Shown: piece by piece, positions 7,713 to 40,342 of the stretch
How the letters are laid out: every line of letters begins with the position of its first letter
Numbering within the stretch: the first letter of the stretch is position 1
Source of the DNA: Escherichia coli
Lineage (GTDB): Bacteria; Pseudomonadota; Gammaproteobacteria; Enterobacterales; Enterobacteriaceae
Length of the DNA stretch: 64,000 nt
Reading direction: 5' to 3' (one strand)
Assembly: GCF_044647545.1 (NCBI RefSeq)
Contig: NZ_CP172818.1
Position numbers and translations under genes: made by a program
Notes under the pieces: generated by a model
Told to the model about the DNA's origin: nothing
Database searches by the model: none
What the model saw: only the letters and a program-made list of their open reading frames with translations

Positions 7713-7732
7713 ATCTAATATTTGATTATCCT

Positions 7733-14810: not shown

Positions 14811-14947
14811 ATGGGCACGGTGCGGGGTGAGTTGTCGGATGCGCTTCGCTTATCCGAACTTCAGGGGAGGATATTTTAGGTCCGGTAAACGCGGTGCCAT
14901 CGGGCAGAATTAGCTCGGAGTAACAGGTTTTGAGTATTTCAGGAAGT
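14811..14947 (-). other. 3' trailer region of the tyrTV transcript (rtT/tpr-type region)
   Basis: Lies immediately downstream (minus strand) of tyrV; contains a REP-like segment (gtcggatgcgcttcgcttatccgaac); assignment is from established knowledge of the tyrT locus, not from a recognisable ORF. Confidence 0.3.
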
Positions 14948-15032
<85 letters not shown>

Positions 15033-15065
15033 AGGGGTAATTCAAATTCTGAGGTAATGCTTGAA

Positions 15066-15150
<85 letters not shown>

Positions 15151-15190
15151 ACGGGGTAATGCTTTTTACTGGCCTGCTCCCTTATCGGGA

Positions 15191-20037: not shown

Positions 20038-20451
20038 TTATTGCTTGATCAGGAAATCGTCGAGGGATTTACCTTGCTCATCCATTGCTTTTTTGATTAC
20101 AGCTGGAGTACGGCCCTGGCCAGTCCAGGTTTTAGTTTCGCCGTTTTCGTCAACGTAGCTATATTTTGCCGGACGCTGAGCACGTTTAGCTTTGGTGCCA
20201 GATTTAACGGCAGCAAGGCTATTCAGCAGTTCGTTCGGGTCAATACCGTCAGCGATCAGCATTTCGCGATATTGCTGCAGTTTACGAGTGCGCTCTTCAA
20301 CTTCAGCAGCAGCCGCGCTTTCTTCTTCGCGACGTTCGTTAACAACAACTTCTAATTTTTCCAGCATTTCTTCCAGCGTTTCAAGTGTACATTCTCTTGC
20401 CTGCGCACGAAGAGTACGGATGTTGTTCAGAATTTTAAGTGCTTCGCTCAT
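20038..20451 (-). CDS. hns: Nucleoid-associated protein H-NS (137 aa)
   Basis: 137-aa [44 protein letters not shown]... Confidence 0.97.
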
Positions 20452-21054
20452 TGTAGTAATCTCAAACTTATATTGGGGTGGTTTGTTGAGGTAATAATAG
20501 AGCCTTAAATTCAGTTGTGCAATAGCCAGGAATGTAAGGAATTCAAAATTGTTCTTTATTTTGTGCCGCCAATAAATATCTTTTCATAAAATTAGCCAGA
20601 AAAGACGCGGCATATAGCCCTATTTGCACCGATGATTTCGCAGCACGTGAGGTTAAAACTTCCTGATTCATGTCACATTTTATGGGGAGATTATCGTAGG
20701 CTGACGACCTTTCAGTCTTCTGTATTAGTCGTGTTTACGAGAATTCCCTATTAAGCGAATGATGAAAAGTAGAACAGTCGCAATAAGAGCAGGGACTTAG
20801 TATTGCACTATCTCCAGGAGGTCAACAGAGGGCTATTACTTGCGCAACAGGTTAAAGATTGTGAATAGTTACCAGCAGTCATTTACCCGCTTATAACAAG
20901 CGAGGCAGTTGTAATGATAGCTCAGAAGGATTATGCAAGGCTTCGTAAGGGAGAACGCATATACCACTTCTGTGCATACTGTTGAGCTGTAAAACTGACG
21001 AATTATGATAAACTCCAGCCAACTTTAATTCATATCATTGAGGGCCTGTGGCTG

Positions 21055-21672
21055 ATGGCACAGCTATATTTCTACTATTCCGCAATGAATGCGGGTAAGT
21101 CTACAGCATTGTTGCAATCTTCATACAATTACCAGGAACGCGGCATGCGCACTGTCGTATATACGGCAGAAATTGATGATCGCTTTGGTGCCGGGAAAGT
21201 CAGCTCGCGTATAGGTTTGTCATCGCCTGCAAAATTATTTAACCAAAATTCATCATTATTTGATGAGATTCGTGCGGAACATGAACAGCAGGCAATTCAT
21301 TGCGTACTGGTTGATGAATGCCAGTTTTTAACCAGACAACAAGTATATGAATTATCGGAGGTTGTCGATCAACTCGATATACCCGTACTTTGTTATGGTT
21401 TACGTACCGATTTTCGAGGTGAGTTATTTATTGGCAGCCAATACTTACTGGCATGGTCCGACAAACTGGTTGAATTAAAAACCATCTGTTTTTGTGGCCG
21501 CAAAGCAAGCATGGTGCTGCGTCTTGATCAAGCAGGCAGACCTTATAACGAAGGTGAGCAGGTGGTTATTGGTGGTAATGAACGCTACGTTTCTGTATGC
21601 CGTAAACACTATAAAGAAGCGTTAGAAGTCGGCTCATTAACGGCTATTCAGGAAAGGCATCGCCACGATTAA
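21055..21672 (+). CDS. tdk: Thymidine kinase Tdk (205 aa)
   Basis: 205-aa [39 protein letters not shown]... with P-loop. Confidence 0.95.
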
Positions 21673-21949
21673 TAAGAATTTCTTTACTGACAGGGTGAGC
21701 AGGGCGCTTTTATCCTGTCAGTTCGTTTTACTCACTTCATCCGGTGTATATACCCTTCTCGACAGTTCTTTAACGCCACTATACCCCTCACAGAGCGCTT
21801 ATACACCGACATTGACTTGTAACCTGTAAAGTACAATATCGCTGTGTGTAGGCGTTATACATCGTCGCAAATATGATGAAGGACAATGCTGTCGGTTTAT
21901 GGGAAAGTTGCTTTGGGTAAAACAAAAAAACGGCCCCAGAAGGGTAATG

Positions 21950-22850
21950 CCGATCAGTTAAGAGGAGCGGCACTATGTTTCACAGGATAACGGGTTTTTG
22001 ATATCTTTAACCGACCTCGGCCTTGATGGTCGGGGGCGTTTTGTTATGAACACCACTTCCAGAGCACCCCGAAGATGCTCCAGTCGTTTCGGGATAGTCC
22101 CTGGTAACACCCTTTACCCAGCTCTATCATTTCTGATGCGATATTCTTCCACGCAGGCAGTAGCCAGTGGCGGTTACAACCCTTCTGGTTCAGCGTCAGC
22201 AGCAGGTCTTCGCTGTAAAAAGTTTATCAAACAACGTAATAGAGTTATCCGGGATGGTGGCGAGCATGGAGTGGGCCAGCACAGTTTCGCTCTGCCGGTA
22301 AGGTGCGGTCACGGCATTCAGCAGAATGTGACTTCCCAGGTTCATTAAGGCCACCAGACGCATAACCGGGTAGGCGTTCTGCCGCTTAGTGGATGTGTTG
22401 GCAGACCCATAATATTCACGCAGCTCGGGTTTATCAGGTGTCCTGAACTGTGCGCCATCAATGGCAAAAAGTTGCAGGCCGTGCCAGTCATCCTTCAGGT
22501 AACGTTCCGCGCCCCTGTCTGTGCGGTCTGGCGGAAGAGCCATTCCACTGGGGCGGCCCCCACGCGCTGACGCGCCTGGGTGACAGCGCTGCGGGCCAGC
22601 AGGTTCATCCCCGCTTCGCCATCCGCGCTCAGGTTCAGACGGCGAACAACATCGGTAATTGGCTCATTGCACCACCATCCAGATAACCATGTCCCCCGGT
22701 AAACGACGGCGGCGAACGGTCGCATGAGCAGAAAGCGTCAGGCAGTGTTGTATCCACTCGGTGGGAAGGTGTTCTGCAAATAGTTGTGCAGAGGGCGGAG
22801 GCATAAGCGGATGGTCACTGAAATCGAGCAGATCATTGAGAAGTGGCATA
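21950..22850 (-). pseudogene. insZ: IS4-family transposase remnant (N-terminal part only, multiple frameshifts)
   Basis: Three out-of-frame minus ORFs (22664-22849, 22495-22725, 22196-22543) together resemble the N-terminal half of IS4-type DDE transposases (e.g. ...TVRRRRLPGDMVIWMVV..., ...FAIDGAQFRTPDKPE...); no intact reading frame or terminal inverted repeats seen. Boundaries are approximate. Confidence 0.6.
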
Positions 22851-22973
22851 AGAAAACGGCTCCCTGTTGTGGAAGCCGTTATAGTGCCTCAGTTTAAGGA
22901 TCGGTCAACTAATCCTTAACTGACTGGCATTACCCCAGAAGGGACCGTTTATGTTGCCAGACAGCGCTACTGA

Positions 22974-25649
22974 TTAAGCGGATTTCTTCGCTTTTTTCTC
23001 AGCTTTAGCCGGAGCGGCTTCTTTTTTCGCTGCAGTTTCACCTTCTACATAATCACGACCGTAGTAGGTATCCAGCAGAATCTGTTTCAGCTCGGAGATC
23101 AGTGGGTAACGCGGGTTAGCGCCGGTGCACTGGTCATCGAATGCATCTTCAGACAGTTTATCCACATTCGCCAGGAAGTCTGCTTCCTGAACGCCAGCTT
23201 CACGGATAGATTTCGGAATACCCAGTTCAGCTTTCAGCGTTTCCAGCCATGCCAGCAGTTTCTCGATCTTAGCAGCAGTACGGTCGCCCGGTGCGCTCAG
23301 ACCCAGGTGGTCAGCAATTTCAGCATAACGACGGCGAGCCTGCGGACGGTCATACTGGCTGAATGCAGTCTGCTTGGTCGGGTTGTCGTTCGCGTTGTAG
23401 CGAATAACGTTACAAATCAGCAGGGCGTTTGCCAGACCGTGCGGAATATGGAACTGGGAACCCAGTTTGTGCGCCATTGAGTGACATACACCCAGGAAGG
23501 CGTTCGCAAACGCGATACCCGCGATAGTTGCTGCACTGTGAACACGTTCACGCGCTACCGGATTTTTAGATCCTTCGTGGTAGGACGCTGGCAGATATTC
23601 TTTCAGCAGTTTCAGCGCCTGCAGAGCCTGACCATCAGAGAACTCAGATGCCAGTACAGAAACATAAGCTTCCATGGCGTGAGTTACTGCGTCCAGACCA
23701 CCGAAAGCACACAGGGACTTCGGCATGTCCATAACCAGGTTGGCATCGACAATCGCCATATCCGGGGTCAGCGCATAGTCTGCCAGCGGATATTTCTGAC
23801 CAGTAGCGTCGTCAGTTACAACCGCAAACGGAGTGACTTCAGAACCTGTACCAGAAGTGGTGGTGACAGCGATCATTTTCGCTTTCACGCCCATTTTCGG
23901 GAACTTGTAGATACGTTTACGGATATCCATAAAGCGCAGCGCCAGTTCTTCGAAGTGAGTTTCCGGATGTTCGTACATGACCCACATGATCTTCGCGGCG
24001 TCCATCGGGGAACCACCACCCAGCGCGATAATCACGTCTGGTTTGAAGGAGTTTGCCAGTTCTGCACCTTTACGAACGATGCTCAGGGTCGGGTCAGCTT
24101 CTACTTCGAAGAAGACTTCAGTTTCAACGCCTGCTGCTTTCAGTACGGAAGTGATCTGATCAGCATAACCATTGTTGAACAGGAAGCGGTCAGTCACGAT
24201 GAGCGCACGTTTGTGGCCATCAGTAATCACTTCATCCAGCGCGATTGGCAGAGAGCCACGGCGGAAGTAGATAGATTTCGGAAGTTTGTGCCACAACATG
24301 TTTTCAGCTCGCTTAGCAACGGTTTTCTTGTTGATCAGGTGTTTCGGACCAACGTTTTCAGAGATGGAGTTACCACCCCAGGAACCACAACCCAGAGTCA
24401 GGGAAGGTGCGAGTTTGAAGTTATACAGGTCACCGATACCACCCTGAGAAGCCGGGGTGTTAATCAGGATACGAGCGGTTTTCATTTTCTGACCGAAGTA
24501 AGAAACGCGAGCCGGTTGGTTATCCTGGTCAGTGTACAGGCAAGAGGTATGACCGATACCGCCCATAGCTACCAGTTTCTCTGCTTTTTCTACCGCGTCT
24601 TCGAAATCTTTAGCGCGGTACATTGCCAGAGTTGGGGACAGTTTTTCATGTGCGAACGGTTCGCTTTCATCAACAACGGTCACTTCACCGATCAGAATCT
24701 TGGTGTTTTCTGGTACAGAGAAGCCTGCCAGTTCAGCAATTTTATAGGCTGGCTGACCAACGATAGCCGCGTTCAGCGCACCGTTTTTCAGGATAACATC
24801 CTGAACAGCTTTCAGCTCTTTACCCTGCAACAGATAGCCGCCGTGGGTTGCGAAACGTTCACGTACTGCGTCATAAACAGAGTCAACAACAACAACAGAC
24901 TGTTCAGAAGCACAGATTACGCCGTTGTCGAAGGTTTTGGACATCAGCACAGATGCAACTGCACGTTTGATATCAGCAGTTTCATCGATAACAACAGGCG
25001 TGTTACCCGCGCCTACACCGATAGCTGGTTTACCGGAGCTGTATGCGGCTTTAACCATGCCCGGACCACCAGTCGCGAGGATCAGGTTGATGTCTGGGTG
25101 GTGCATCAGTGCGTTAGACAGTTCAACCGAAGGTTGATCGATCCAGCCGATCAGATCTTTCGGAGCACCGGCAGCGATAGCAGCCTGCAGAACGATATCA
25201 GCTGCTTTGTTGGTTGCATCTTTTGCACGCGGGTGCGGGGAGAAGATAATGGCGTTACGGGTCTTCAGGCTGATCAGCGATTTGAAGATAGCAGTTGAAG
25301 TCGGGTTAGTGGTCGGAACGATACCGCAAATAATACCGATGGGTTCAGCGATAGTGATGGTACCAAAAGTGTCGTCTTCAGACAGAACACCACAGGTTTT
25401 TTCATCTTTATAGGCGTTGTAAATATATTCAGAAGCAAAGTGGTTTTTGATCACTTTATCTTCGACGATACCCATGCCGGATTCGGCAACGGCCATTTTC
25501 GCGAGTGGGATTCGAGCATCTGCAGCAGCCAGAGCGGCGGCGCGGAAGATTTTGTCTACTTGCTCTTGAGTGAAACTGGCATATTCACGCTGGGCTTTTT
25601 TTACACGCTCTACGAGTGCGTTAAGTTCAGCGACATTAGTAACAGCCAT
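22974..25649 (-). CDS. adhE: Bifunctional acetaldehyde-CoA / alcohol dehydrogenase AdhE (891 aa)
   Basis: 891-aa [57 protein letters not shown]... Confidence 0.97.
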
Positions 25650-26125
25650 AATGCTCTCCTGATAATGTTAAACTTTTTTAGTAAATCATCTGCTCGAATA
25701 CGAGAGTATAGTCAGTGCGGTGATGATTTGCTTAACCGATGGAAATCAAAAGCTTACTCGCGCTCACACTCACTGTGATTTACTAAAAGAGTTTAAACAT
25801 TAGAGTTATTATCTCTAATGCGTCACTTCCAGGTGGCGTAAGCAAGATTACTCACTTCTGGGTACTGATTACGTGATCCAAATCAAATTTTTGCAAAGCT
25901 GACACCTTTCAGCATCGCTTTTCGCCATTATAGCTAACAGTTAATAAATTGTAGTATGATTTGTTGGCTACATTAGCATGTTTTGCACAACTAGATAACA
26001 ATAACGAATGATAGCAATTTTAAGTAGTTAGGAGGTGAAAAATGCTGTCAAAAGGCGTATTGTCAGCGCGTCTTTTTAACCTTATTTATGGCTAACATTA
26101 TCCGGCTTTTGCTTCGGAGCTAACC

Positions 26126-26773
26126 GTGATTCAGACCCTTTTTGATTTTCCCGTTTACTTCAAATTTTTCATCGGGTTATTTGCGCTGGTCAACCCGGTA
26201 GGGATTATTCCCGTCTTTATCAGCATGACCAGTTATCAGACAGCGGCAGCGCGAAACAAAACTAACCTTACAGCCAACCTGTCTGTGGCCATTATCTTGT
26301 GGATCTCGCTTTTTCTCGGCGACACGATTCTACAACTTTTTGGTATATCAATTGATTCATTCCGTATCGCCGGGGGCATCCTGGTGGTGACAATAGCGAT
26401 GTCGATGATCAGCGGCAAGCTTGGTGAGGATAAACAGAACAAGCAAGAAAAATCAGAAACCGCGGTACGTGAAAGCATTGGTGTGGTGCCGTTGGCGTTG
26501 CCGTTGATGGCGGGGCCAGGGGCGATCAGTTCTACCATCGTCTGGGGTACGCGTTATCACAGCATTAGCTATCTGTTTGGTTTCTTTGTGGCTATTGCTT
26601 TGTTCGCTTTATGTTGCTGGGGATTGTTCCGCATGGCACCGTGGCTGGTACGGGTTTTACGCCAGACCGGCATCAACGTGATTACGCGTATTATGGGGCT
26701 ATTGCTGATGGCATTGGGGATTGAATTTATCGTTACTGGTATTAAGGGGATTTTCCCCGGCCTGCTTTATTAA
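26126..26773 (+). CDS. ychE: MarC-family inner-membrane protein YchE (215 aa)
   Basis: 215-aa hydrophobic ORF MIQTLFDFPVYFKFFIGLFALVNPVGIIPVFISM... Confidence 0.85.
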   Translation: MIQTLFDFPVYFKFFIGLFALVNPVGIIPVFISMTSYQTAAARNKTNLTANLSVAIILWISLFLGDTILQLFGISIDSFRIAGGILVVTIAMSMISGKLGEDKQNKQEKSETAVRESIGVVPLALPLMAGPGAISSTIVWGTRYHSISYLFGFFVAIALFALCCWGLFRMAPWLVRVLRQTGINVITRIMGLLLMALGIEFIVTGIKGIFPGLLY

Positions 26774-26786
26774 TTCCTTTCAATTG

Positions 26787-26812
26787 AAACGGAGCTGCCA
26801 TGCTCCGTTTAC
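26787..26812 (+). terminator. Candidate terminator hairpin after ychE
   Basis: aaacggagc-tgccat-gctccgttt hairpin; only a short T run follows, so intrinsic termination is uncertain. Confidence 0.4.
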
Positions 26813-27506
26813 TTCGTCATTATTTTTACTTTGTTCCCGCGCAGTTATCAAAAGCAAAAGGAATAGGTAAAAATATTCTTCTCAAATTACAGTTAGTTAT
26901 AAGGATTTCCCTAACTGCTTCTCCTCACCATCATGTTATTTTCGCCACATCATAATCCTGGGCTTGCTGAAGAATAATTGAAATGATATTAGTAATTCCA
27001 CTACCTTTGGTAGAGGAACTAAATAATAATCAATTGTTAAATTATTGTGCATTTCACTACTGGAACTGTAATCAGAAAAGAGAGACATGCTTAACCAACC
27101 TCTATTTGATTGAATTGAAAGATGTTTGTTAAGGCATGGATGCAAGCTATAGATTCTGATACGGTCAATAAAAGAGAATTGCTTAACAATTTTGCAAAAT
27201 GTATTGGCGAGTAAGAACCGCATTTGGTACTTTCCGGGCAACCGCCAGGCGATTCTTTATTGGTAATGAGAATAATTAACAATTAAAGATCGTCGCGAAA
27301 GAATAATGTGTCTCGACAGGGGAGACACAGTACGAATCGACATAAGGTGATCGTCTGAATCACCAGAATAAATAAAGTCGGTGATAGTAATACGTAACGA
27401 TAAAGTAACCTGACAGCAGAAAGTCTCCGAGCCTGTGCAGGGTCCCAATCCGGGATTACACATGCTGGTTAATACCAGTAATTATAATGAGGGAGTCCAA
27501 AAAACA

Positions 27507-29138
27507 ATGACCAACATCACCAAGAGAAGTTTAGTAGCAGCTGGCGTTTTGGCTGCGCTTATGGCAGGGAATGTCGCGCTGGCAGCTGATGTACCCGCAG
27601 GTGTCACACTGGCGGAAAAACAAACGCTGGTACGTAACAATGGTTCAGAAGTTCAGTCATTAGATCCGCACAAAATTGAAGGTGTTCCGGAGTCTAATAT
27701 CAGCCGAGACCTGTTTGAAGGCTTACTGGTTAGCGATCTTGACGGTCATCCGGCACCTGGCGTCGCTGAATCCTGGGATAATAAAGACGCGAAAGTCTGG
27801 ACCTTCCATTTGCGTAAAGATGCGAAATGGTCTGATGGCACGCCAGTTACAGCACAAGACTTTGTGTATAGCTGGCAACGTTCTGTTGATCCAAACACTG
27901 CTTCTCCGTATGCCAGTTATCTGCAATATGGGCATATCGCCGGTATTGATGAAATTCTTGAAGGGAAAAAACCGATTACCGATCTCGGCGTGAAAGCTAT
28001 TGATGATCACACATTAGAAGTCACCTTAAGTGAACCTGTTCCGTACTTCTATAAATTACTTGTTCACCCATCAACTTCACCGGTGCCAAAAGCCGCTATC
28101 GAGAAATTCGGCGAAAAATGGACCCAGCCTGGTAATATCGTCACCAACGGTGCCTATACCTTAAAAGATTGGGTCGTAAACGAACGAATCGTTCTTGAAC
28201 GCAGCCCGACCTACTGGAACAACGCGAAAACCGTTATTAACCAGGTAACCTATTTGCCTATTGCTTCTGAAGTTACCGATGTCAACCGCTACCGTAGTGG
28301 TGAAATCGACATGACTTATAACAACATGCCGATCGAATTGTTCCAGAAGCTGAAAAAAGAGATCCCGGACGAAGTTCACGTTGATCCATACCTGTGCACT
28401 TACTATTACGAAATTAACAACCAGAAACCGCCATTTAATGACGTGCGTGTGCGTACCGCACTGAAATTGGGTATGGACCGCGATATCATTGTTAATAAAG
28501 TGAAAGCGCAGGGCGACATGCCCGCCTATGGTTACACTCCACCATATACTGATGGCGCAAAATTGACTCAGCCGGAATGGTTTGGCTGGAGCCAGGAAAA
28601 ACGTAACGAAGAAGCGAAAAAACTGCTGGCTGAAGCGGGTTATACCGCAGACAAACCGTTGACCATCAACCTGTTGTATAACACCTCCGATCTGCATAAA
28701 AAGCTGGCGATTGCTGCCTCTTCATTGTGGAAGAAAAACATTGGTGTAAACGTCAAACTGGTTAACCAGGAGTGGAAAACGTTCCTCGACACCCGTCACC
28801 AGGGCACTTTTGATGTGGCCCGTGCAGGCTGGTGTGCAGACTACAACGAACCAACTTCCTTCCTGAACACCATGCTGTCGAACAGCTCGATGAATACCGC
28901 GCATTATAAGAGCCCGGCCTTTGACAGCATTATGGCGGAAACGCTGAAAGCGACTGACGAGGCGCAGCGCACAGCTCTGTACACTAAAGCAGAACAACAG
29001 CTGGATAAGGATTCGGCCATTGTTCCTGTTTATTACTACGTGAATGCGCGTCTGGTGAAACCGTGGGTTGGTGGCTATACCGGCAAAGATCCGCTGGATA
29101 ATACCTACACCCGGAATATGTACATTGTGAAGCACTAA
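27507..29138 (+). CDS. oppA: Periplasmic oligopeptide-binding protein OppA (543 aa)
   Basis: ORF 27435-29138; the known start MTNITKRSLVAAGVLAALMAGNVALA (signal peptide) is at 27507. Confidence 0.95.
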   Translation: MTNITKRSLVAAGVLAALMAGNVALAADVPAGVTLAEKQTLVRNNGSEVQSLDPHKIEGVPESNISRDLFEGLLVSDLDGHPAPGVAESWDNKDAKVWTFHLRKDAKWSDGTPVTAQDFVYSWQRSVDPNTASPYASYLQYGHIAGIDEILEGKKPITDLGVKAIDDHTLEVTLSEPVPYFYKLLVHPSTSPVPKAAIEKFGEKWTQPGNIVTNGAYTLKDWVVNERIVLERSPTYWNNAKTVINQVTYLPIASEVTDVNRYRSGEIDMTYNNMPIELFQKLKKEIPDEVHVDPYLCTYYYEINNQKPPFNDVRVRTALKLGMDRDIIVNKVKAQGDMPAYGYTPPYTDGAKLTQPEWFGWSQEKRNEEAKKLLAEAGYTADKPLTINLLYNTSDLHKKLAIAASSLWKKNIGVNVKLVNQEWKTFLDTRHQGTFDVARAGWCADYNEPTSFLNTMLSNSSMNTAHYKSPAFDSIMAETLKATDEAQRTALYTKAEQQLDKDSAIVPVYYYVNARLVKPWVGGYTGKDPLDNTYTRNMYIVKH

Positions 29139-29223
29139 TGGCAATACGTGGGGCAGGCGTATCCTGCTCCACGGTGTCTGATTTTTATCGCATTACAGAA
29201 GGCACAGGCCAGAAGGTAGGGCA

Positions 29224-30144
29224 ATGTTAAAATTTATTCTACGTCGCTGTCTGGAAGCGATTCCGACGCTATTTATTCTTATTACTATTTCGTTCTTCAT
29301 GATGCGCCTCGCGCCGGGCAGTCCTTTTACCGGCGAACGTACTTTACCACCGGAAGTGATGGCCAATATCGAAGCGAAATATCATCTTAATGATCCGATC
29401 ATGACACAGTATTTCAGCTACCTGAAACAACTGGCGCATGGCGATTTCGGTCCATCGTTTAAATATAAAGATTATTCGGTCAATGACCTGGTTGCATCCA
29501 GTTTTCCCGTTTCTGCCAAACTGGGAGCCGCAGCATTTTTCCTTGCGGTAATACTGGGTGTTAGTGCTGGCGTTATTGCCGCATTAAAACAAAACACCAA
29601 ATGGGACTATACCGTGATGGGGCTGGCAATGACCGGGGTTGTTATCCCCAGTTTTGTGGTTGCGCCATTATTAGTCATGATATTTGCGATCATTTTGCAT
29701 TGGCTGCCGGGCGGTGGCTGGAATGGTGGTGCGCTTAAATTCATGATACTGCCAATGGTGGCGTTGTCACTCGCCTATATCGCCAGTATTGCGCGTATTA
29801 CCCGTGGCTCTATGATTGAAGTATTACACTCCAACTTTATTCGTACTGCCCGGGCGAAAGGGTTACCTATGCGGCGGATCATTTTACGCCACGCATTAAA
29901 ACCTGCTCTGTTACCCGTGCTCTCCTATATGGGCCCTGCATTTGTCGGCATTATTACCGGTTCTATGGTCATCGAAACCATTTATGGTTTGCCGGGGATT
30001 GGGCAATTGTTCGTTAATGGTGCATTGAACCGTGACTATTCCTTAGTGTTAAGCCTGACCATCCTGGTTGGTGCTTTAACCATTTTGTTTAATGCCATTG
30101 TCGATGTGCTATATGCGGTTATCGACCCGAAAATCCGTTACTGA
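29224..30144 (+). CDS. oppB: Oligopeptide ABC transporter permease OppB (306 aa)
   Basis: 306-aa ORF MLKFILRRCLEAIPTLFILITISFFMMRLAPGSPF... Confidence 0.95.
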   Translation: MLKFILRRCLEAIPTLFILITISFFMMRLAPGSPFTGERTLPPEVMANIEAKYHLNDPIMTQYFSYLKQLAHGDFGPSFKYKDYSVNDLVASSFPVSAKLGAAAFFLAVILGVSAGVIAALKQNTKWDYTVMGLAMTGVVIPSFVVAPLLVMIFAIILHWLPGGGWNGGALKFMILPMVALSLAYIASIARITRGSMIEVLHSNFIRTARAKGLPMRRIILRHALKPALLPVLSYMGPAFVGIITGSMVIETIYGLPGIGQLFVNGALNRDYSLVLSLTILVGALTILFNAIVDVLYAVIDPKIRY

Positions 30145-30158
30145 TACTGGAGCTCGCG

Positions 30159-31067
30159 ATGATGTTAAGTAAGAAAAACAGCGAGACGCTGGAAAATTTC
30201 AGTGAAAAGCTGGAGGTCGAAGGGCGCAGCTTGTGGCAGGACGCACGTCGACGTTTTATGCATAACCGTGCGGCGGTTGCCAGTCTGATAGTGCTGGTGC
30301 TGATCGCGTTATTTGTCATCCTGGCACCGATGCTTTCGCAGTTTGCCTATGACGATACTGACTGGGCGATGATGTCCAGCGCCCCGGATATGGAGTCCGG
30401 TCACTACTTTGGTACTGACTCATCTGGTCGCGACCTGCTTGTGCGCGTTGCGATTGGCGGGCGTATCTCACTCATGGTCGGTGTTGCTGCGGCACTGGTG
30501 GCAGTGGTCGTGGGGACACTTTATGGTTCGCTTTCCGGTTATCTGGGCGGTAAAGTGGATTCGGTAATGATGCGTCTGCTGGAAATCCTCAACTCCTTCC
30601 CATTCATGTTCTTCGTCATTTTGCTGGTGACCTTTTTCGGTCAAAACATCCTGCTGATTTTCGTGGCGATTGGCATGGTTTCCTGGCTGGATATGGCTCG
30701 TATTGTGCGTGGGCAAACCCTGAGTCTGAAGCGCAAAGAGTTTATTGAGGCGGCACAAGTTGGCGGTGTATCGACGCCGGGCATTGTTATTCGCCACATT
30801 GTGCCGAACGTACTCGGTGTGGTGGTGGTCTACGCATCGCTATTGGTGCCCAGCATGATCCTCTTTGAATCTTTCCTTAGCTTCCTGGGGTTGGGGACGC
30901 AAGAGCCGTTAAGCAGCTGGGGCGCATTGCTGAGTGATGGCGCGAACTCGATGGAAGTCTCTCCATGGTTACTGTTGTTCCCAGCGGGATTCCTCGTGGT
31001 GACGCTATTTTGTTTCAACTTTATCGGCGATGGCTTGCGTGATGCCCTCGACCCGAAAGATCGTTAA
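30159..31067 (+). CDS. oppC: Oligopeptide ABC transporter permease OppC (302 aa)
   Basis: 302-aa ORF MMLSKKNSETLENFSEKLEVEGRSLWQDARRRF... Confidence 0.95.
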   Translation: MMLSKKNSETLENFSEKLEVEGRSLWQDARRRFMHNRAAVASLIVLVLIALFVILAPMLSQFAYDDTDWAMMSSAPDMESGHYFGTDSSGRDLLVRVAIGGRISLMVGVAAALVAVVVGTLYGSLSGYLGGKVDSVMMRLLEILNSFPFMFFVILLVTFFGQNILLIFVAIGMVSWLDMARIVRGQTLSLKRKEFIEAAQVGGVSTPGIVIRHIVPNVLGVVVVYASLLVPSMILFESFLSFLGLGTQEPLSSWGALLSDGANSMEVSPWLLLFPAGFLVVTLFCFNFIGDGLRDALDPKDR

Positions 31068-31078
31068 GGAGTGCAGCC

Positions 31079-32092
31079 ATGAGCGTAATTGAAACTGCAA
31101 CTGTGCCGCTCGCACAACAACAGGCTGACGCACTGCTGAACGTGAAAGATTTGCGTGTCACCTTTAATACCCCGGACGGCGACGTCACGGCGGTCAATGA
31201 TCTGAATTTTTCCCTACGTGCCGGAGAAACGCTGGGCATCGTAGGTGAGTCTGGTTCGGGCAAATCGCAAACCGCATTTGCGTTGATGGGCCTGTTGGCT
31301 GCCAACGGACGTATTGGCGGATCGGCAACCTTCAATGGGCGTGAAATCCTCAATTTGCCAGAGCGTGAACTCAATAAACTGCGAGCTGAACAAATCTCAA
31401 TGATTTTTCAGGACCCAATGACTTCGTTGAATCCCTATATGCGCGTCGGTGAGCAGTTGATGGAAGTGCTGATGCTGCATAAGAACATGAGCAAAGCTGA
31501 GGCGTTTGAAGAGTCGGTGCGGATGCTCGATGCGGTAAAAATGCCGGAAGCGCGTAAACGCATGAAAATGTACCCGCACGAATTTTCTGGCGGCATGCGT
31601 CAGCGAGTCATGATTGCGATGGCATTGCTATGTCGACCTAAGCTGCTGATTGCGGATGAACCCACTACTGCGCTGGACGTCACCGTACAGGCGCAGATCA
31701 TGACGCTATTGAATGAACTGAAGCGGGAATTTAATACCGCCATCATTATGATCACCCACGATCTTGGCGTGGTGGCGGGGATCTGCGACAAAGTGCTGGT
31801 AATGTACGCCGGGCGCACGATGGAATATGGCAACGCGCGCGATGTCTTTTATCAACCCGTTCATCCTTATTCTATCGGTTTGCTCAACGCGGTGCCGCGT
31901 CTCGATGCGGAAGGTGAAACAATGTTGACTATTCCGGGTAATCCGCCAAACCTGCTGCGATTACCGAAAGGTTGCCCGTTCCAGCCACGTTGTCCGCATG
32001 CGATGGAAATTTGTAGTAGCGCACCGCCGCTGGAAGAGTTTACGCCTGGCCGTCTGCGTGCTTGCTTTAAACCGGTGGAGGAACTGTTATGA
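31079..32092 (+). CDS. oppD: Oligopeptide ABC transporter ATPase OppD (337 aa)
   Basis: 337-aa ORF with Walker A GESGSGKSQ and ABC signature FSGGMRQR; 4-bp overlap with oppF. Confidence 0.95.
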   Translation: MSVIETATVPLAQQQADALLNVKDLRVTFNTPDGDVTAVNDLNFSLRAGETLGIVGESGSGKSQTAFALMGLLAANGRIGGSATFNGREILNLPERELNKLRAEQISMIFQDPMTSLNPYMRVGEQLMEVLMLHKNMSKAEAFEESVRMLDAVKMPEARKRMKMYPHEFSGGMRQRVMIAMALLCRPKLLIADEPTTALDVTVQAQIMTLLNELKREFNTAIIMITHDLGVVAGICDKVLVMYAGRTMEYGNARDVFYQPVHPYSIGLLNAVPRLDAEGETMLTIPGNPPNLLRLPKGCPFQPRCPHAMEICSSAPPLEEFTPGRLRACFKPVEELL

Positions 32093-33093
32093 ATGCTGTA
32101 ACCGAAGGAAGAAAAGTCCTCCTCGAAATCGCCGATCTGAAAGTGCACTTTGAAATCAAAGATGGCAAACAGTGGTTCTGGCAACCGCCGAAAACGCTCA
32201 AAGCCGTCGATGGTGTAACTCTTCGCCTGTATGAAGGGGAAACATTAGGTGTGGTAGGGGAATCGGGATGCGGTAAGTCCACCTTTGCTCGCGCCATCAT
32301 CGGTTTGGTCAAGGCGACCGACGGTCATGTTGCCTGGTTAGGTAAAGAGTTGCTGGGCATGAAGCCCGATGAATGGCGTGCCGTTCGCAGTGATATTCAG
32401 ATGATTTTCCAGGATCCGTTGGCATCGCTGAACCCGCGTATGACCATCGGCGAGATCATCGCTGAACCACTGCGTACTTATCATCCGAAAATGTCACGCC
32501 AGGAAGTTCGCGAGCGCGTGAAGGCGATGATGCTGAAAGTCGGGTTATTGCCTAACCTGATTAACCGCTATCCGCATGAGTTCTCTGGTGGGCAGTGCCA
32601 GCGTATCGGGATTGCACGTGCACTTATTCTTGAACCGAAGCTGATTATCTGTGATGAGCCGGTGTCGGCGCTGGATGTGTCAATTCAGGCGCAGGTGGTC
32701 AACCTGCTCCAGCAGTTACAACGTGAGATGGGATTGTCATTAATTTTTATCGCTCACGACCTGGCCGTGGTAAAACACATTTCCGATCGTGTGTTAGTGA
32801 TGTATCTCGGCCATGCGGTAGAACTGGGGACCTATGATGAGGTCTACCACAATCCACTACATCCTTACACCAGGGCATTGATGTCGGCAGTCCCCATACC
32901 TGATCCGGATCTGGAGAAGAACAAAACCATCCAGTTACTGGAAGGGGAATTACCGTCGCCGATCAACCCGCCTTCCGGTTGTGTTTTCCGTACCCGTTGT
33001 CCGATTGCCGGTCCGGAGTGTGCCAAAACACGTCCTGTGCTGGAGGGGAGTTTCAGACACGCCGTTTCTTGCCTGAAAGTCGATCCGCTTTAA
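32089..33093 (+). CDS. oppF: Oligopeptide ABC transporter ATPase OppF (334 aa)
   Basis: 334-aa ORF with Walker A GESGCGKST and signature FSGGQCQR. Confidence 0.95.
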   Translation: MNAVTEGRKVLLEIADLKVHFEIKDGKQWFWQPPKTLKAVDGVTLRLYEGETLGVVGESGCGKSTFARAIIGLVKATDGHVAWLGKELLGMKPDEWRAVRSDIQMIFQDPLASLNPRMTIGEIIAEPLRTYHPKMSRQEVRERVKAMMLKVGLLPNLINRYPHEFSGGQCQRIGIARALILEPKLIICDEPVSALDVSIQAQVVNLLQQLQREMGLSLIFIAHDLAVVKHISDRVLVMYLGHAVELGTYDEVYHNPLHPYTRALMSAVPIPDPDLEKNKTIQLLEGELPSPINPPSGCVFRTRCPIAGPECAKTRPVLEGSFRHAVSCLKVDPL

Positions 33094-33099
33094 ACACAA

Positions 33100-33127
33100 T
33101 AAGGGCTGACAGTTGTCAGCCCTTTTT
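33100..33127. terminator. Hairpin terminator between convergent oppF and yciU
   Basis: agggctgaca-gttg-tcagccct followed by ttttt; 7 bp after the oppF stop. Confidence 0.65.
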
Positions 33128-33145
33128 CACTCCAAAAGCGATTAT

Positions 33146-34970
<1,825 letters not shown>

Positions 34971-35112
34971 AGATTAGAAATCCTTTTGAAAGCGCATTGT
35001 TATGAGTTTACGCATATGGATTCATCTGGCAAATAAAAACGCGGGAAAAGCACTGGTCAGCGTCGGGGGCGGGGGTATAATGACCATTCTGTTATTGCAT
35101 AGAGTAGTTAAC

Positions 35113-35286
35113 ATGAAGCGGAGTAGAACGGAAGTGGGGCGCTGGCGCATGCAGCGTCAGGCTAGCCGACGTAAATCGCGTTGGCTTGAGGGGCAGTCGC
35201 GCCGAAATATGCGTATCCACAGCATCAGGAAGTGCATTCTAAACAAACAGCGTAACTCGTTATTGTTTGCGATCTACAATATCTAA
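35113..35286 (+). CDS. yciY: Small highly basic protein YciY (57 aa)
   Basis: Internal ATG of ORF 35002-35286 gives MKRSRTEVGRWRMQRQASRRKSRWLEGQSRRNMRIHSIRKCILNKQRNSLLFAIYNI (57 aa); lies between convergent cls and kch. Confidence 0.6.
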   Translation: MKRSRTEVGRWRMQRQASRRKSRWLEGQSRRNMRIHSIRKCILNKQRNSLLFAIYNI

Positions 35287-35340
35287 ATGTTCTGGGCACC
35301 ATTGCGGTGCCCAATAAGTTTACTCTTCCGTCTTTAAACT

Positions 35341-36594
35341 CTATTTTTGCGCCGATTCTTTACTGTCAGCTTTCGTTTCTTGTTCATCGTTATCGCTGAA
35401 AATGCCATGACCGGAGTTCAACAACATTGAAACGAGCATATCATTATTAATCTCTTCACCATTTAAAACTCGCGCCAGAATTTCGCTGCCAAACAGTTGT
35501 GGTGAGAGAATGATATCCGGATGTACCATCTTAATCTTATTCAGGTTTTTGCTATCACTGACGGCAAGAACTGTTTTGACATCACTGCTCATATCTTTTG
35601 CCGAGAGTACAACAAACGCGTTATCTGCATCGTTATCACTCAGCGCCAGAATGGCCCGGCAACGATCGATTCCCGCTTTCTTTAACACTGAACTGTCATT
35701 ACTGTCACCGGGGATAACATCAGCGTTATCGCCTAAGCGTTGCTCAAGTTGCTTGATATCATCTTCAGGCAAGTTGCTGATAACCGTAACGTTTTGTCCG
35801 CGTTGATTCAGTTGCAGGATCGTATTGATGGCGAGAATCGAATGTCCGCAAACAATAAAATGATCTTTACGATGCATTGTATGATTGTTTCCTTTTACAA
35901 GTTTGTTGAATCCCCCGCGGATAAGCGGACCAAAAATTGAGGTCATAGAGGTGGCAAAAACGGTAATGCCGGAAATAATGACCGAAATAGTGAACAATCG
36001 TGCTGATTCAGAAACAGGGACAATATCGCCATAGCCGACGGTTGACATGGTTTCTATCGAAAAATAGAACGCGGTCATCAAACTTTCTATTCGCGGATTA
36101 AAACCTTCGCTTAAATAAAGCGCACCGTAGGTGGAGTAAAACAGTAACGTCGTGAAACTAATAAATGCGAAAATTGTCCCGGCTGCGGCGCTACTGTGGG
36201 AGAAGTCTTTGCGCAGTATCAGCAAAAACACCAGCGTAAAAATGCAAAATCCAATACTAAATTTCAGCCAGGGATAAAAATGCAGGGTGTAAATTAGCGC
36301 TATCAACAACAAAATGATACTGATTGCCCATGCGAGTTTTGCCCGGAACAGTAAGCCAATGGAGTTCAGGACAAGAAAGACGCCGAGCATAAAGAGTGGG
36401 GCGTTTGCCAGCAAGGAGAGATCCAACTCTGAAAAGGCTTTGATATGGAAAATATCAAGCAAATTGACCGACATACCATAGATTGTTTTAAAAATAAGCA
36501 ATCCATTTAAAAAAACGGCCAGCGCGAGAATGTCGTGCCGTAGGGTCACCCATAAATTAGTTGCTGTTTGTTTGAATGTAGCCCAGTGACTCAC
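35341..36594 (-). CDS. kch: Voltage-gated potassium channel homolog Kch (417 aa, GTG start)
   Basis: ORF 35341-36612; product MSHWATFKQTATNLWVTLRHDILALAVFL... with the K+ selectivity filter TVGYGD and a C-terminal RCK/TrkA domain. Confidence 0.9.
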   Translation of the reverse strand: MSHWATFKQTATNLWVTLRHDILALAVFLNGLLIFKTIYGMSVNLLDIFHIKAFSELDLSLLANAPLFMLGVFLVLNSIGLLFRAKLAWAISIILLLIALIYTLHFYPWLKFSIGFCIFTLVFLLILRKDFSHSSAAAGTIFAFISFTTLLFYSTYGALYLSEGFNPRIESLMTAFYFSIETMSTVGYGDIVPVSESARLFTISVIISGITVFATSMTSIFGPLIRGGFNKLVKGNNHTMHRKDHFIVCGHSILAINTILQLNQRGQNVTVISNLPEDDIKQLEQRLGDNADVIPGDSNDSSVLKKAGIDRCRAILALSDNDADNAFVVLSAKDMSSDVKTVLAVSDSKNLNKIKMVHPDIILSPQLFGSEILARVLNGEEINNDMLVSMLLNSGHGIFSDNDEQETKADSKESAQK

Positions 36595-36894
36595 TGATAC
36601 CTCTGTAACCACAATTTTGTTTAATTATCTCAACGTGCACATTTTCTGAACATACATGCAGCACGTGAATGTGTTAAACAATAGTAGATGACTTTATCTG
36701 AAGTAATCAAAGGTTTTGAGTGAGCAACTCTGCGTCAGGAAAGGGCATTTTTCCTGAATATGCTCACATCATATAAAGAAATACAGATAAAGTTATTATC
36801 TGCTTGTGGGGGTGAATGCACTGACCGACCTATAAGGAAAGGCCAAACAAGAACACGGTTGCAAAAACCGTGCCCTTAAATATTGAATCTCTAT

Positions 36895-37191
36895 TCAGAA
36901 CACTTTCTTAAATGGTTTCACTGAAACGTGTTCATAGACTCCTGCCGCTACGTACGGGTCAGCATCGGCCCAGGCCTGAGCTGCTTCCAGCGATTCAAAT
37001 TCAGCAATAACGGTTGAGCCAGTAAATCCCGCAGCCCCTGGATCGTTACTGTCTACTGCTGGCATTGGACCGGCGGTCAACAAACGACCTTCATCATGCA
37101 GTAACTGTAAACGTGCTAAATGTGCCGGACGAACGGAAAGGCGTTTTTCGAGGCTATCAGCTTTGTCTTGAGCGTAAATAACATACAACAC
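36895..37191 (-). CDS. yciI: YciI-like protein (98 aa, probable GTG start)
   Basis: ORF 36895-37254; Dabb/YciI-like fold sequence; start placed to give the known 98-aa length. Confidence 0.75.
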
Positions 37192-37346
37192 GGGCACAAC
37201 TCCTTGTTCGGGAAAGTTGTAAAGTACGTTATTTGAAAGGGCGAAGATCTGCAACGGAAAGATGATGTCTTTGTTAAGACCATTTAAAAAGTAAGGTCAA
37301 TTGCGCCAAAAATGACATTTTCACTGATCCTGATCGTCTTGCCTTA

Positions 37347-37370
37347 TTGAATATGATTGCTATTTGCATT
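37347..37370 (+). promoter_or_regulatory. Fur box in the tonB promoter
   Basis: ttgaatatgattgctatttgcatt resembles the Fur consensus (GATAATGATAATCATTATC-type hexamer repeats), about 45 bp upstream of the tonB ATG. Confidence 0.6.
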
Positions 37371-37414
37371 TAAAATCGAGGCCTGGTTTTTCTACTGAAA
37401 TGATTATGACTTCA

Positions 37415-38131
37415 ATGACCCTTGATTTACCTCGCCGCTTCCCCTGGCCGACGTTACTTTCGGTCTGCATTCATGGTGCTGTTGTGGCGGGTCTGCTCTA
37501 TACCTCGGTACATCAGGTTATTGAACTACCTGCGCCCGCGCAGCCGATTTCTGTCACGATGGTTGCGCCAGCGGATCTCGAACCGCCACAAGCCGTTCAA
37601 CCACCACCGGAGCCGGTGGTAGAGCCAGAACCGGAACCTGAGCCGATCCCTGAACCGCCAAAAGAAGCTCCGGTGGTCATTGAAAAGCCGAAGCCGAAAC
37701 CTAAGCCAAAACCGAAGCCGGTGAAAAAGGTGGAGCAGCCAAAACGCGATGTCAAACCCGTAGAGTCGCGTCCGGCATCACCGTTTGAAAATACGGCACC
37801 CGCGCGCCCGACATCAAGTACGGCAACGGCTGCAACCAGCAAGCCGGTTACCAGTGTGGCTTCAGGACCACGCGCATTAAGCCGTAATCAGCCGCAGTAT
37901 CCGGCACGAGCACAGGCATTGCGCATTGAAGGGCAGGTTAAAGTTAAATTTGATGTCACGCCAGATGGTCGCGTGGATAACGTACAAATCCTCTCAGCCA
38001 AGCCTGCAAACATGTTTGAGCGTGAGGTGAAAAATGCGATGCGCAGATGGCGTTATGAGCCGGGTAAGCCAGGCAGTGGGATTGTGGTGAATATCCTGTT
38101 TAAAATTAACGGCACCACCGAAATTCAGTAA
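37415..38131 (+). CDS. tonB: Energy transducer TonB
   Basis: ORF 37364-38131; recognised start [29 protein letters not shown] at 37415; proline-rich (EP)n/(KP)n spacer; C-terminal ...[13 protein letters not shown]. Confidence 0.95.
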
Positions 38132-38141
38132 ACAGAAAGTC

Positions 38142-38165
38142 AAAAGCCTCCGACCGGAGGCTTTT
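38142..38165. terminator. Bidirectional terminator between tonB and yciA
   Basis: aaaagcctccg-acc-ggaggctttt: perfect hairpin flanked by A4 and T4. Confidence 0.75.
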
Positions 38166-38170
38166 GATTA

Positions 38171-38569
38171 TTACTCAACAGGTAAGGCGCGAGGTTTTCC
38201 TTCGGGATCAACCGCGACATACTTAAATAATGCTTCTGTTGCTTTATAGCGTTGCCCGATGGGTTCAGACGCCACTTTTTTCACCCACACTTCAATATTA
38301 ATGCTGACTGATGTCGTCCCTTTCTGGACACAGCGTGCATAGCAGCACACCACATCGCCGACCGCAACCGGCCGTAAGAAAGTCATTCCTTCAACCCGCA
38401 CGGTCACTACACGACCGTGGGCAATTTCTTTCGCCAGAATAGCGCCGCCAATATCCATTTGTGACATTAACCAACCACCAAAGATGTCACCATTGGCATT
38501 GGTATCGGCGGGCATGGCTAAAGTACGTAAAACAAGATCGCCCTGAGGGACGTTATGTGTTGTAGACAT
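38171..38569 (-). CDS. yciA: Acyl-CoA thioesterase YciA (132 aa)
   Basis: 132-aa ORF MSTTHNVPQGDLVLRTLAMPADTNANGDIFGGWLMSQMD... (hotdog fold). Confidence 0.9.
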   Translation of the reverse strand: MSTTHNVPQGDLVLRTLAMPADTNANGDIFGGWLMSQMDIGGAILAKEIAHGRVVTVRVEGMTFLRPVAVGDVVCCYARCVQKGTTSVSINIEVWVKKVASEPIGQRYKATEALFKYVAVDPEGKPRALPVE

Positions 38570-38673
38570 GGTAAAACCGACTTAAAAGGAAAATCACAGG
38601 CGCGATGCTACTATGATTTTCCTGAGGAGAACAGAGGAGATACAGCGCCAGCCCCGAAGGACTGGCAGTCTGG

Positions 38674-39213
38674 TTAGGATTTATCTTCCTGCGGCATGTG
38701 GCGGTAGATATAGATACCGCTTAACAATGTGAAGATTAAGGTAAGGGCGGTCAGGCCAAAGACTTTAAAGTTGACCCAAATATTTTGCGGCAGCCAGAAT
38801 GCGATGTAGATGTTTGCCAGACCGCAAAGGATAAAGAAAACAGCCCAGGCCAGATTCAGCTTCGACCATACCGGTTGCGGCAGGGTGAGTTCTTTACCCA
38901 GCATCCGCTGAATTAGCGGCTTTTTCATCACCCATTGGCTGACTAACAGGGCACCTGCAAACAGGGCATAAATGACAGTAACCTTCCATTTAATAAACTC
39001 ATCATTGTGGAAGAACAGGGTCAAGCCACCGAAGACGACCACCAGAACAAAAGTGATCAGGGCCATCTTCTCAACCTTACGAAAGCGAACCCAGCTATAT
39101 ATAAGCACAATCGCCGTGGCGACGATCAGCGCCGCAGTAGCCGCATAGATGTCATAAATCTTGTAAAACGCGAAAAAGACAACCAGCGGTAAAAAATCAA
39201 GAAACTGCTTCAT
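38674..39213 (-). CDS. yciB: Inner-membrane (intracellular septation) protein YciB (179 aa)
   Basis: 179-aa hydrophobic [42 protein letters not shown]... Confidence 0.9.
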
Positions 39214-39242
39214 TTTACGATTCCGTAATCAAATGCTTAAGG

Positions 39243-39986
39243 TTATTGGCGAATCAACATATACAGGCGGAACAGATAGATGAGCAGTACGGCTGAAATC
39301 AGGTTGCTCAAGGTGTTCGCCAGTACGGCACCAATTTCCGGGGTTAATGCGGCAAAAGAAGAGGCAAAAAGCAGCAACAGTGTTTTTGCCAGCAACCAGC
39401 TCAGTACTGCGGGTGCCACCAGACGCATATTCGCCCAAGTCAGCCGCATACTGCTACGCATCGAGGCAAAAACGCCCATTTTGTCCTGTACCAACATCAC
39501 CGGTGCCAGGGCCAGTAAAATGGCCATGATAATTCCCGGAACGACCACCAGCATGATGCCAATCTGTACTAAAAGGGTAGTCAGAAAAATCAGAATAAAT
39601 AACTTTGGCAATATCGGCGCACTGGCACCAATAGCTCGCAGCGCACTGACTCTCTGACCCGCAGACACCAGCTGGATAATTAATATTACGCCTCCGGCGA
39701 GAATGGCGTTACCGATTAATCCTGAAAAAGTGGACGCCGCTGAAGCCTGCAGCAAAATTTGTTGCTGTTCCGGTGACATATTCTGAACCAGGTCGAACAA
39801 GCCACTACTGCCGCTAACGGGCACGCCGTCATTGAGCTGCGCAAGCTGTGCATCACTGGGTGAGAAAACATGCCCTAACACCACTGTGATAAACGCACAT
39901 AGCAACGATACCAACAGAATGGTCATAAATTGATTGCGGAAGAAATTTCCGGTGTCACGGTATACGGACTGCGCCGTGATAGACAT
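39243..39986 (-). CDS. yciC: Inner-membrane protein YciC (247 aa)
   Basis: 247-aa [41 protein letters not shown]... Confidence 0.9.
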
Positions 39987-40342
39987 GCACTCTCCTTGAG
40001 TTTTATGCAGGTGTTAATTAGCGGGCAATTGTACCCTGGTTAAGCCTCGGGTGGCAGCATCAGGTCTTGTATGGAAAAGCATATCTTTGTAAAGCGGAGG
40101 TAATTGCTGGCCTTCAGACGTGGGCAAATCGCGGCAAGTGGCGATCGAGTTAATATTTGCGTAGCGAAAATATTTAAAAATTGATTTGAATCACATTAAC
40201 CAGGATTCTTAATGCAACTTCTAAATTAATCCAGATCAATAAATGGTGAATTATCATATGTAATGTGATCTATGTAGGATCATTTGTTACTCCAATGTAG
40301 GTATATTCGTCACGTTTTTATAACCATAACGACGGAGCGGAT

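Follow-up and report, generated by a model that had tools for sequence, protein, structure and literature searches.

A dead IS4-subgroup element occupies the adhE terminator of an Escherichia coli chromosome and probably supplies its replacement

In Escherichia coli K-12, the interval between tdk and adhE contains a pseudogene named insZ or ISZ' (PMC3465305, PMC3032704), and the presence of a similar sequence at the same position in a second chromosome raises the question of what kind of element this is, and of what its insertion has meant for adhE. The sequence analysed here (the window) is a 64,000-nucleotide stretch of E. coli DNA in which hns (20038–20451, minus strand), tdk (21055–21672, plus strand) and adhE (22974–25649, minus strand) provide the gene-order context. 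Collinearity of the window with K-12 is interrupted only by small indels and by a poly(A) tract of ~410 bp at 54055–54467, where K-12 has 19 bp. In our reading, to which we assign a probability of roughly 85%, the feature between tdk and adhE is a dead element of the IS4 family and IS4 subgroup, orthologous to insZ/ISZ', which split the adhE terminator and whose own leader hairpin now probably ends the adhE mRNA. As a pseudogene of a known insertion-sequence family the feature was already known, and the K-12 remnant at this site is annotated as 'IS4 family transposase, frameshifted', which agrees with the mention of a K-12 pseudogene here in the initial annotation. From the point of view of annotation the locus is therefore routine, and the borrowed terminator, a four-allele hot spot and chimeric ends are modest additions. 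The further statement in the initial annotation that nothing else in the window derives from mobile elements holds for insertion-sequence and prophage genes, and the collinear K-12 interval annotates no other transposase or integrase.

The family assignment rests on three minus-strand open reading frame fragments (22664–22849, 22495–22725 and 22196–22543). These matched the Pfam families Nterm_IS4 (PF13006; E 3.7e-11 and 3.5e-12) and DDE_Tnp_1 (PF01609; E 1.5e-05), while their stitched translation scored 137.9 bits against the NCBIfam model NF033592, 'IS4 family transposase' (cutoff 115). A full-length relative of 445 aa, assembled from database fragments, was used as a tblastn query and aligned across the frameshifts and stops with an E-value of 3.6e-100, placing residues 1–217 at 22849–22217, residues 217–249 at 22220–22122, residues 397–429 at 22104–22006 and residues 428–444 at 22010–21960. 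These data support the original description of a degraded IS4-family transposase whose minus-strand frames are interrupted by frameshifts and stops; an absence of similarity to IS4 transposases, the outcome that would have spoken against this description, was looked for and is not what the Pfam and NF033592 scores report.

The alignment also indicates how much of the gene survives. The N-terminal remnant (22217–22849, minus strand, ATG at 22849–22847), seen in the reading frames, Pfam matches and tblastn alike, carries residues 1–217, in which D1 (AIDG) and D2 (LFDKLF) are retained along with the IS4 N-terminal domain, and two deletions, of 17 bp at ~22669 and of 1 bp at ~22515, disrupt its frame. 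Residues 217–249 follow in a shifted frame (22122–22220, minus strand), a 1-bp deletion at ~22220 being evident from comparison with K-12 and the intact copy, and end at the junction of a 423-bp deletion (22130–22143, minus strand). Alignment to the intact element shows that this deletion removed 141 codons (residues ~247–387), which are flanked there by 14-bp direct repeats, TATCGCGRCAGAAA. Beyond the junction, a C-terminal remnant (21960–22104, minus strand) retains residues 397–444 of 445, so that the gene is not represented by its N-terminal part alone, as had been thought. This segment contains two frameshifts found only in the window, +1 at 22008 and −1 at 22113, which, with the single-base indels at ~22515 and ~22220, add to the disruption of the frame. 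Taken together, residues 1–~246 and ~388–445 survive, corresponding to 988 of ~1430 bp and roughly 300 of 445 codons, or about two thirds of the transposase rather than the half first estimated. Because the 423-bp deletion takes residues ~247–387, the Y(2)R(3)E(6)K motif has been lost together with the catalytic glutamate; the motif is absent from the remnant, and is present in the intact relative (88–92% identical) as YHSRWEIEVGFRNLK at residue 311. Judged from its sequence, the lineage is a member of the IS4 subgroup, but the window copy is catalytically dead, with no active enzyme encodable.

The initial annotation had seen neither terminal inverted repeats nor a target-site duplication. 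Both were found at the flanks of the coding remnants. An IS4-type end pattern had two matches in the 64 kb (chance expectation 0.02), and these are the two ends of the element: an 18-bp terminal inverted repeat, TAATGCCGATCAGTTAAG, on the plus strand at 21945–21962, at the 3' end of the transposase gene, whose stop codon is read just inside it, and its partner, TAATGCCAGTCAGTTAAG, on the minus strand at 22915–22932, at the 5' end of the gene. Adjoining each end is one copy of a perfect 11-bp direct repeat, CCCCAGAAGGG, on the tdk side at 21934–21944 and on the adhE side at 22933–22943; a direct repeat search found exactly two copies in the 64 kb, where 0.02 would be expected. From the terminal repeats and the abutting duplication, the element therefore spans 21945–22932 (988 bp), and its minus-strand transposase gene has the same direction as adhE. 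The extent originally given, 21950–22850, encloses the transposase fragments but misses the 5' leader and one of the repeats. A subterminal inverted repeat with 8-bp arms, TTAAGGAT...ATCCTTAA (22894–22919), is also visible in the sequence and pairs as a stem on folding; it overlaps the terminal repeat on its inner side, and IS4 and the intact plasmid relative each have an equivalent stem.

These features can be compared with the definition of the IS4 subgroup, for which a single-ORF DDE transposase bearing the IS4 N-terminal domain, an end signature of -AATR--------WTW----, a duplication of 10–13 bp and a length of 1400–1650 bp have been described (De Palmenaer et al. 2008, PMC2266710). Both ends of the element fit the signature, and the 11-bp duplication, present as a single copy in the empty site, falls within the range. 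The length of 988 bp is below that of the subgroup because, compared with the intact element of ~1430 bp, 423 bp and 17 bp have been lost to deletions. With N- and C-terminal parts both kept around one internal deletion, the feature is an internally deleted whole element and not a truncated half. The frameshifted N-terminal fragments would also be expected of a truncated half-transposase fossil with no ends and no duplication, random debris unrelated to adhE expression, but such a fossil is hard to reconcile with two ends, a duplication and the coding end of the C-terminus, or with a position inside the adhE terminator and, in the Term-seq entries available for K-12, a mapped RNA 3' end within the element; we consider it very improbable.

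The position of the insertion was resolved by comparison with E. coli 042, in which the same tdk–adhE interval lacks the element and contains one CCCCAGAAGGG. On the adhE strand, this empty site folds as AAACGGUCCC-UUCU-GGGGCCGUUU with a U-run after it, 30 nt past the adhE stop codon, and by this predicted fold it is a canonical intrinsic terminator of adhE. In the window, the insertion point falls within that hairpin and 30 bp beyond the adhE stop codon, the element occupying the loop and inner stem. The distal arm of the ancestral hairpin, AAAAAAACGG, is now at 21924–21933, parted by the insertion from its proximal partner, ACCGTTT, at 22944–22950. Folding of the sequence next to adhE in the window leaves a 4-bp stub without a U-tract, and the insertion appears to have destroyed the original terminator. 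The element is thus downstream of adhE, and not upstream of an adhE 3' flank as had been suggested. The neighbouring tdk gene is not affected by the insertion because it has a terminator-like hairpin of its own at ~21686–21727.

A candidate replacement is present within the element itself. A terminator scan of 21600–23100 found a single terminator-like site on the minus strand, which is the leader hairpin of the element (22855–22880), located just upstream of the transposase ATG. In the fold, a 10-bp stem with six G–C pairs closes a 6-nt loop, and UUUCUU comes next, in keeping with a GC-rich stem-loop and U-tract. Its 3' arm includes the Shine-Dalgarno-like motif GGGAG, which from its sequence is a likely ribosome-binding site. 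The hairpin is conserved in the intact plasmid relative, and IS4 has a stronger hairpin in the same place, with a 14–15-bp stem and U7. In an intact element, the leader hairpin and its U-tract would normally shield the transposase gene from outside read-through and hide its ribosome-binding site.

Published Term-seq data for K-12 MG1655 bear on whether this hairpin acts on adhE transcripts (Adams et al. 2021, PMC7815308, supplementary file 1). A 3' end was recorded at 1,295,324(−) in three growth conditions, with mean reads of 53,801 (LB, OD 0.4), 51,499 (LB, OD 2.0) and 100,225 (M63). The surrounding sequence is given as ...AACGGCTTCCACAACAGGGAGCCGTTTTCT|TATGCC, with the 3' end within ...GGGAGCCGTTTTCT, and the position converts to about 22851 in the window, which is in the U-tract of the leader hairpin. 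The window and K-12 are identical over 22222–22923, and the signal represents K-12 data on identical sequence. Among the Term-seq entries available for this region, no minus-strand 3' end is listed between 1,295,324 and the adhE open reading frame, while a 3' end is recorded on the tdk side at 1,294,198(+). With a 3' end at the U-tract and none listed nearer adhE in those entries, the simplest reading is that the adhE mRNA now probably ends at the leader hairpin donated by the dead element, which would terminate it ~120 nt downstream of the stop codon. In the same entries the authors of the Term-seq study classed 1,295,324(−) as 'orphan' and not as the adhE terminator, and the 3' end may instead mark a site of processing or belong to a transcript that begins between adhE and the hairpin.

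If the hairpin does terminate adhE transcription, as we think probable, a terminator supplied by the element would explain why the insertion has been tolerated and kept in about a third of E. coli. For a remnant that cannot make transposase, this is the sole function suggested so far, and itself a putative one. In K-12-type strains, a much-studied gene would appear to end its mRNA at the terminator of a dead mobile element, and such a borrowed terminator is relevant to annotation of the adhE 3' UTR and to strain engineering at tdk–adhE. Two further observations concern the same region. The only Rfam match in 21500–23100 was ctRNA_p42d at 22846–22882, which was rejected as a generic likeness to terminator hairpins, its score being 33.4 bits against a gathering score of 50. 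On the plus strand, the element contains a promoter-like site at 21979–22007 and then a terminator-like site at 22015–22035; in the available K-12 Term-seq entries (PMC7815308), no plus-strand 3' ends are listed between 1,294,198 and 1,299,498 for two of the three conditions, the coverage of the third beginning downstream of 1,294,198.

The relationship to K-12 insZ/ISZ' is close in most respects. The two copies have in common the locus, the orientation, the 11-bp target, the 423-bp and 17-bp deletions and most of the frameshifts, so that site, orientation and inactivating lesions are those expected of orthologues; the ends and flanks are not those expected of simple vertical descent. The K-12 ends, CAATGCCGTTCACTTAAG and CAATGCCGATCAGTTAAG, are as in the intact plasmid relative, whereas the window ends differ from them at three positions each, and the K-12 duplication has lost one base, whereas that of the window is perfect. 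Seven changes within the element are found in the window and not in K-12: an added T at 22008 and, clustered over 22096–22116, G>A at 22096, 22106 and 22109, G>C at 22112, a deletion at 22113 and T>A at 22116. None of the seven occurs in the K-12, RM9513, plasmid or O157 copies, and their derivation from a paralogue was rejected on that basis; by eye, they show no shift towards the IS4 sequence.

The ends and flanks of the window element are matched by strain ST648 (NZ_CP008697.1). Identity between the window and K-12 is about 98%, against 99.97% with ST648 over 1–21962 and 99.86% over 22915–40983 (~99.9% over 40 kb), and it reaches 100% at 20500–21962 and 22915–23491, through both 18-bp ends. 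At tdk–adhE, ST648 has an intact IS4 in plus orientation, and each end of the window element is that of the ST648 IS4 on the same side, at 3 of 18 positions unlike the K-12 insZ end. Between these ends, the window interior is insZ-type, in minus orientation and with the K-12 lesions. The equation with the K-12 allele is accordingly correct for the remnant and its site, and incorrect for the 18-bp ends and flanks, which are those of an ST648-type IS4 insertion. The ends are foreign to the lineage of the interior that they enclose, and the history of this copy is thus not one of simple vertical descent. As a separate difference between the two chromosomes, ST648 has a prophage next to ompW that is absent from the window.

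Searches for this allele elsewhere were negative. Its combination of features was found in 0 of 5,426 E. coli genomes (best match 95.8% over the left junction) and in none by exact-ORF look-up, and a metagenome scan returned the window-type junction 0 times and a K-12-type control junction 20 times. An artefact of assembly or gap filling would account for this uniqueness among the genomes, ORFs and metagenomes searched: contigs of an ST648-like strain may have broken at the multicopy IS4 (present in 6 places in the relative FDAARGOS_497) and the gap may have been filled from an insZ-bearing reference, with real sequence kept only as far as it could be aligned, that is, through the 18-bp ends. 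The break points do coincide precisely with the inner edge of each alignable end. The poly(A) tract at another place in the window, implausible at ~410 bp, inclines us towards assembly trouble, although the rest of the window has the structure of ST648 and not that of a K-12-like reference, and the seven private changes match no reference examined. We regard an artefact as quite possible while stopping short of calling it probable, and the chimeric allele calls for caution before the assembly is trusted.

A natural recombinant would be a chromosome of the ST648 lineage in which the IS4 interior alone was swapped for an insZ-type interior of another lineage, the resident flanks and 18-bp ends being kept, possibly through heteroduplex repair that returned the homologous arms to the recipient sequence. 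The complete identity to ST648 up to and through both ends, within ~40 kb of near identity, the intact IS4 at this site in ST648 relatives and the K-12-type lesions of the interior are all as such an exchange would leave them. However, the exchange points would have to lie within 5–9 bp of shared sequence, far under what RecA-type recombination needs, the flanks contain no donor SNPs, the combination is missing from the genomes, look-ups and metagenomes in which the K-12-type junction recurs, and the seven interior changes are in no other copy examined. Natural recombination consequently strikes us as unlikely, if not negligibly so.

Independent insertion of a 988-bp non-autonomous deletion derivative, mobilised in trans by an IS4-type transposase, was also considered. 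Perfect IS4-type ends and a perfect duplication are what such an event would produce, and IS4-ended miniature elements are mobile in other genera; yet the site, orientation, 423-bp and 17-bp deletions and near-identical 5' 700 bp are common to the K-12-type allele, each end matches that of the ST648 IS4 on its own side, and the tdk–adhE query with the element matched a median of one place per genome. The 988-bp unit with other duplications at other loci has not been seen so far in these searches, and we give this route almost no weight.

Comparison of the tdk–adhE interval across strains, which the initial annotation had recommended, was extended from the empty site of E. coli 042 to 5,426 complete E. 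coli genomes using junction-centred queries. Four alleles were distinguished: an empty site in 2,200 genomes, the insZ-type remnant in about 1,883 (1,882–1,883), IS4 in minus orientation with its right end towards tdk in about 1,130, and intact IS4 in plus orientation in 190, among them ST648 and STEFF_1. These add up to 5,403 of the 5,426 genomes, and the adhE terminator is occupied in 59%. The junctions of A4, STEFF_1 and ST648 show that all inserted alleles use the same 11–12 bp duplication. The IS4 copy of strain A4, which belongs to the minus-orientation group, is 1146 bp long, with a 281-bp internal deletion that has also cost it the YREK motif. The occupation of one site by at least two unrelated elements, and in both orientations, argues for site-specific targeting and not for one ancient accident. 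The adhE terminator is in this respect a natural four-allele insertion hot spot, and possibly a ready-made system for the study of IS4 target recognition.

The two elements that share this target are alike in architecture and unlike in content. IS4 (insG), the 1426-bp type element of the subgroup, belongs to the same family and subgroup as the window element, has identical 18-bp ends and makes a duplication of 11–14 bp. Subterminal hairpins are found in both, as is a terminator-like hairpin shortly before the transposase ATG, and both have the adhE terminator as a hot-spot target. The DNA interiors, however, are only distantly related (the A4 copy of IS4 and the window interior were left unaligned by megablast), the transposases are different proteins, and IS4 is intact and active in many strains whereas the window element is dead. 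The closer relative is an intact element on plasmids (pE105-1; WP_094312392.1, 445 aa), whose nucleotide identity to the remnant is 92% across 800 bp at the 5' end and 88% across 200 bp at the 3' end. Like the window element it has the leader hairpin and an 11-bp duplication in a hairpin-like target; it differs in its full length of ~1430 bp, its complete DDE and YREK motifs, its ends, which begin CAATGCC, and its location on plasmids. A fragment of this plasmid lineage has been labelled 'ISCro3 transposase' by one source.

Preference for hairpins has been described for other insertion sequences. ISRm22, of the IS4 family, and IS1397, IS621 and ISPpu9, of other families, target hairpins or REP sequences with strong site specificity (PMC1525189), and the IS4 subgroup has been credited with 'spectacular apparent insertion specificity' (PMC2266710). 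These elements resemble the window element in residing in extragenic palindromes or terminator-like hairpins; IS1397, IS621 and ISPpu9, unlike ISRm22, belong to families with other chemistries, and use of the element's terminator by the upstream gene does not form part of their description.

In a tentative and still doubtful generalisation, IS4-subgroup elements would be 'terminator-homing, terminator-supplying', recognising and splitting symmetric terminator or REP hairpins and giving back inward-facing terminators from their own ends, and the window allele would be the record of a natural 'cassette exchange' in which two different elements of the same hot spot traded sequence between the inverted repeats. 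Were this true, element-supplied terminators would render insertion nearly neutral, explaining the recurrent occupation of the adhE terminator.

As part of the main reading, the transposases of the IS4 subgroup probably recognise hairpin-like targets with symmetry, among them AAA-N20-TTT terminators and REP sequences, and cut with a stagger of about one helical turn. The target consensus of IS4 is AAA-N20-TTT, and the fit to it was examined at three sites (n=3). In strain NN5, the intact IS4 found in the bamD terminator fits it, and the K-12 insG site is a sequence of the same type. The hairpin-like targets of the intact plasmid relatives lack the A/T arms, which counts against targeting of this type. 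A scan of species-representative genomes with the 18-bp ends found many IS4-ended miniature elements of 123–218 bp in Pseudomonas and Comamonas, situated in terminator-like A-run/hairpin/T-run sequences or in REP palindromes.

Comparison of the dead IS4-subgroup element lying between tdk and adhE with ST648, a strain nearly clonal with the window (NZ_CP008697.1), showed an interior and ends of different types. The two strains are identical at both 18-bp terminal inverted repeats (21945-21962 and 22915-22932), and the window flanks from 1 to 21962 and from 22915 to 40983 are of the ST648 type. At the same site, ST648 carries an intact IS4 in the orientation opposite to that of the window element, the interior of which is of the type seen in the K-12 pseudogene insZ, with the addition of seven private changes. 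This combination of ST648-type flanks and ends with an insZ-type interior was absent from every collection searched. Within the element, the leader hairpin coincides with a weak Rfam match to ctRNA_p42d (22846-22882, minus strand; 33.4 bits versus a gathering score of 50), which probably reflects a generic terminator shape.

Across 5,426 complete E. coli genomes, IS4 proper occupied the adhE-terminator target in minus orientation in ~1,130, as in strain A4 (locus L003, 1764-2909), and as an intact plus-orientation copy in 190, as in STEFF_1 and ST648 (loci L011 and L132). A 281-bp stretch with the YREK motif is missing from the A4 copy. The region encoding the catalytic glutamate has been lost independently in both remnants examined, this copy and the insZ type. 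A second copy of the insZ-like element, truncated differently and with 82–94% identity, was found in O157:H7 strain NADC 5570/86-24/6565 (locus L009, 2001-2772), where a pseudogene for a sialate O-acetylesterase and nanM lie close by.

In strain NN5, an intact IS4 (locus L007, 1524-2949) lies inside the bamD terminator hairpin, in the same direction as bamD, flanked by a 14-bp target duplication (CAGCTCAAGGGCTG) and with its leader terminator directly downstream of the gene. Dozens of miniature elements of 123–218 bp were also found between 18-bp IS4-type ends the same as those of the window element (loci L020-L026, L057, L062-L112, L123 and L124). In Pseudomonas sp. ok272 (L062-L112), a 145-bp family is inserted at REP-like palindromes with the duplication GGGCAAGCCT; others are located in A-run/hairpin/T-run terminators.

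Elsewhere, the window differed from K-12 or ST648 at ~7713-7717, 14945-15160 and ~40891-40983, the last being where it diverges from ST648. The narK-narG spacer is 127 bp longer in K-12, which also has a larger number of rtT/tyrT repeat units than the window. A prophage integrated beside ompW in ST648 is absent from the window. Between rluB (53178-54053, plus strand) and cobO/btuR (54509-55099, minus strand) lies an A-rich, low-complexity, almost pure poly(A) tract of ~410 bp (54055-54467), with neither an ORF nor a mobile-element repeat structure. The corresponding interval in K-12 is just 19 bp long, and the tract most likely arose as an artefact of assembly or sequencing.
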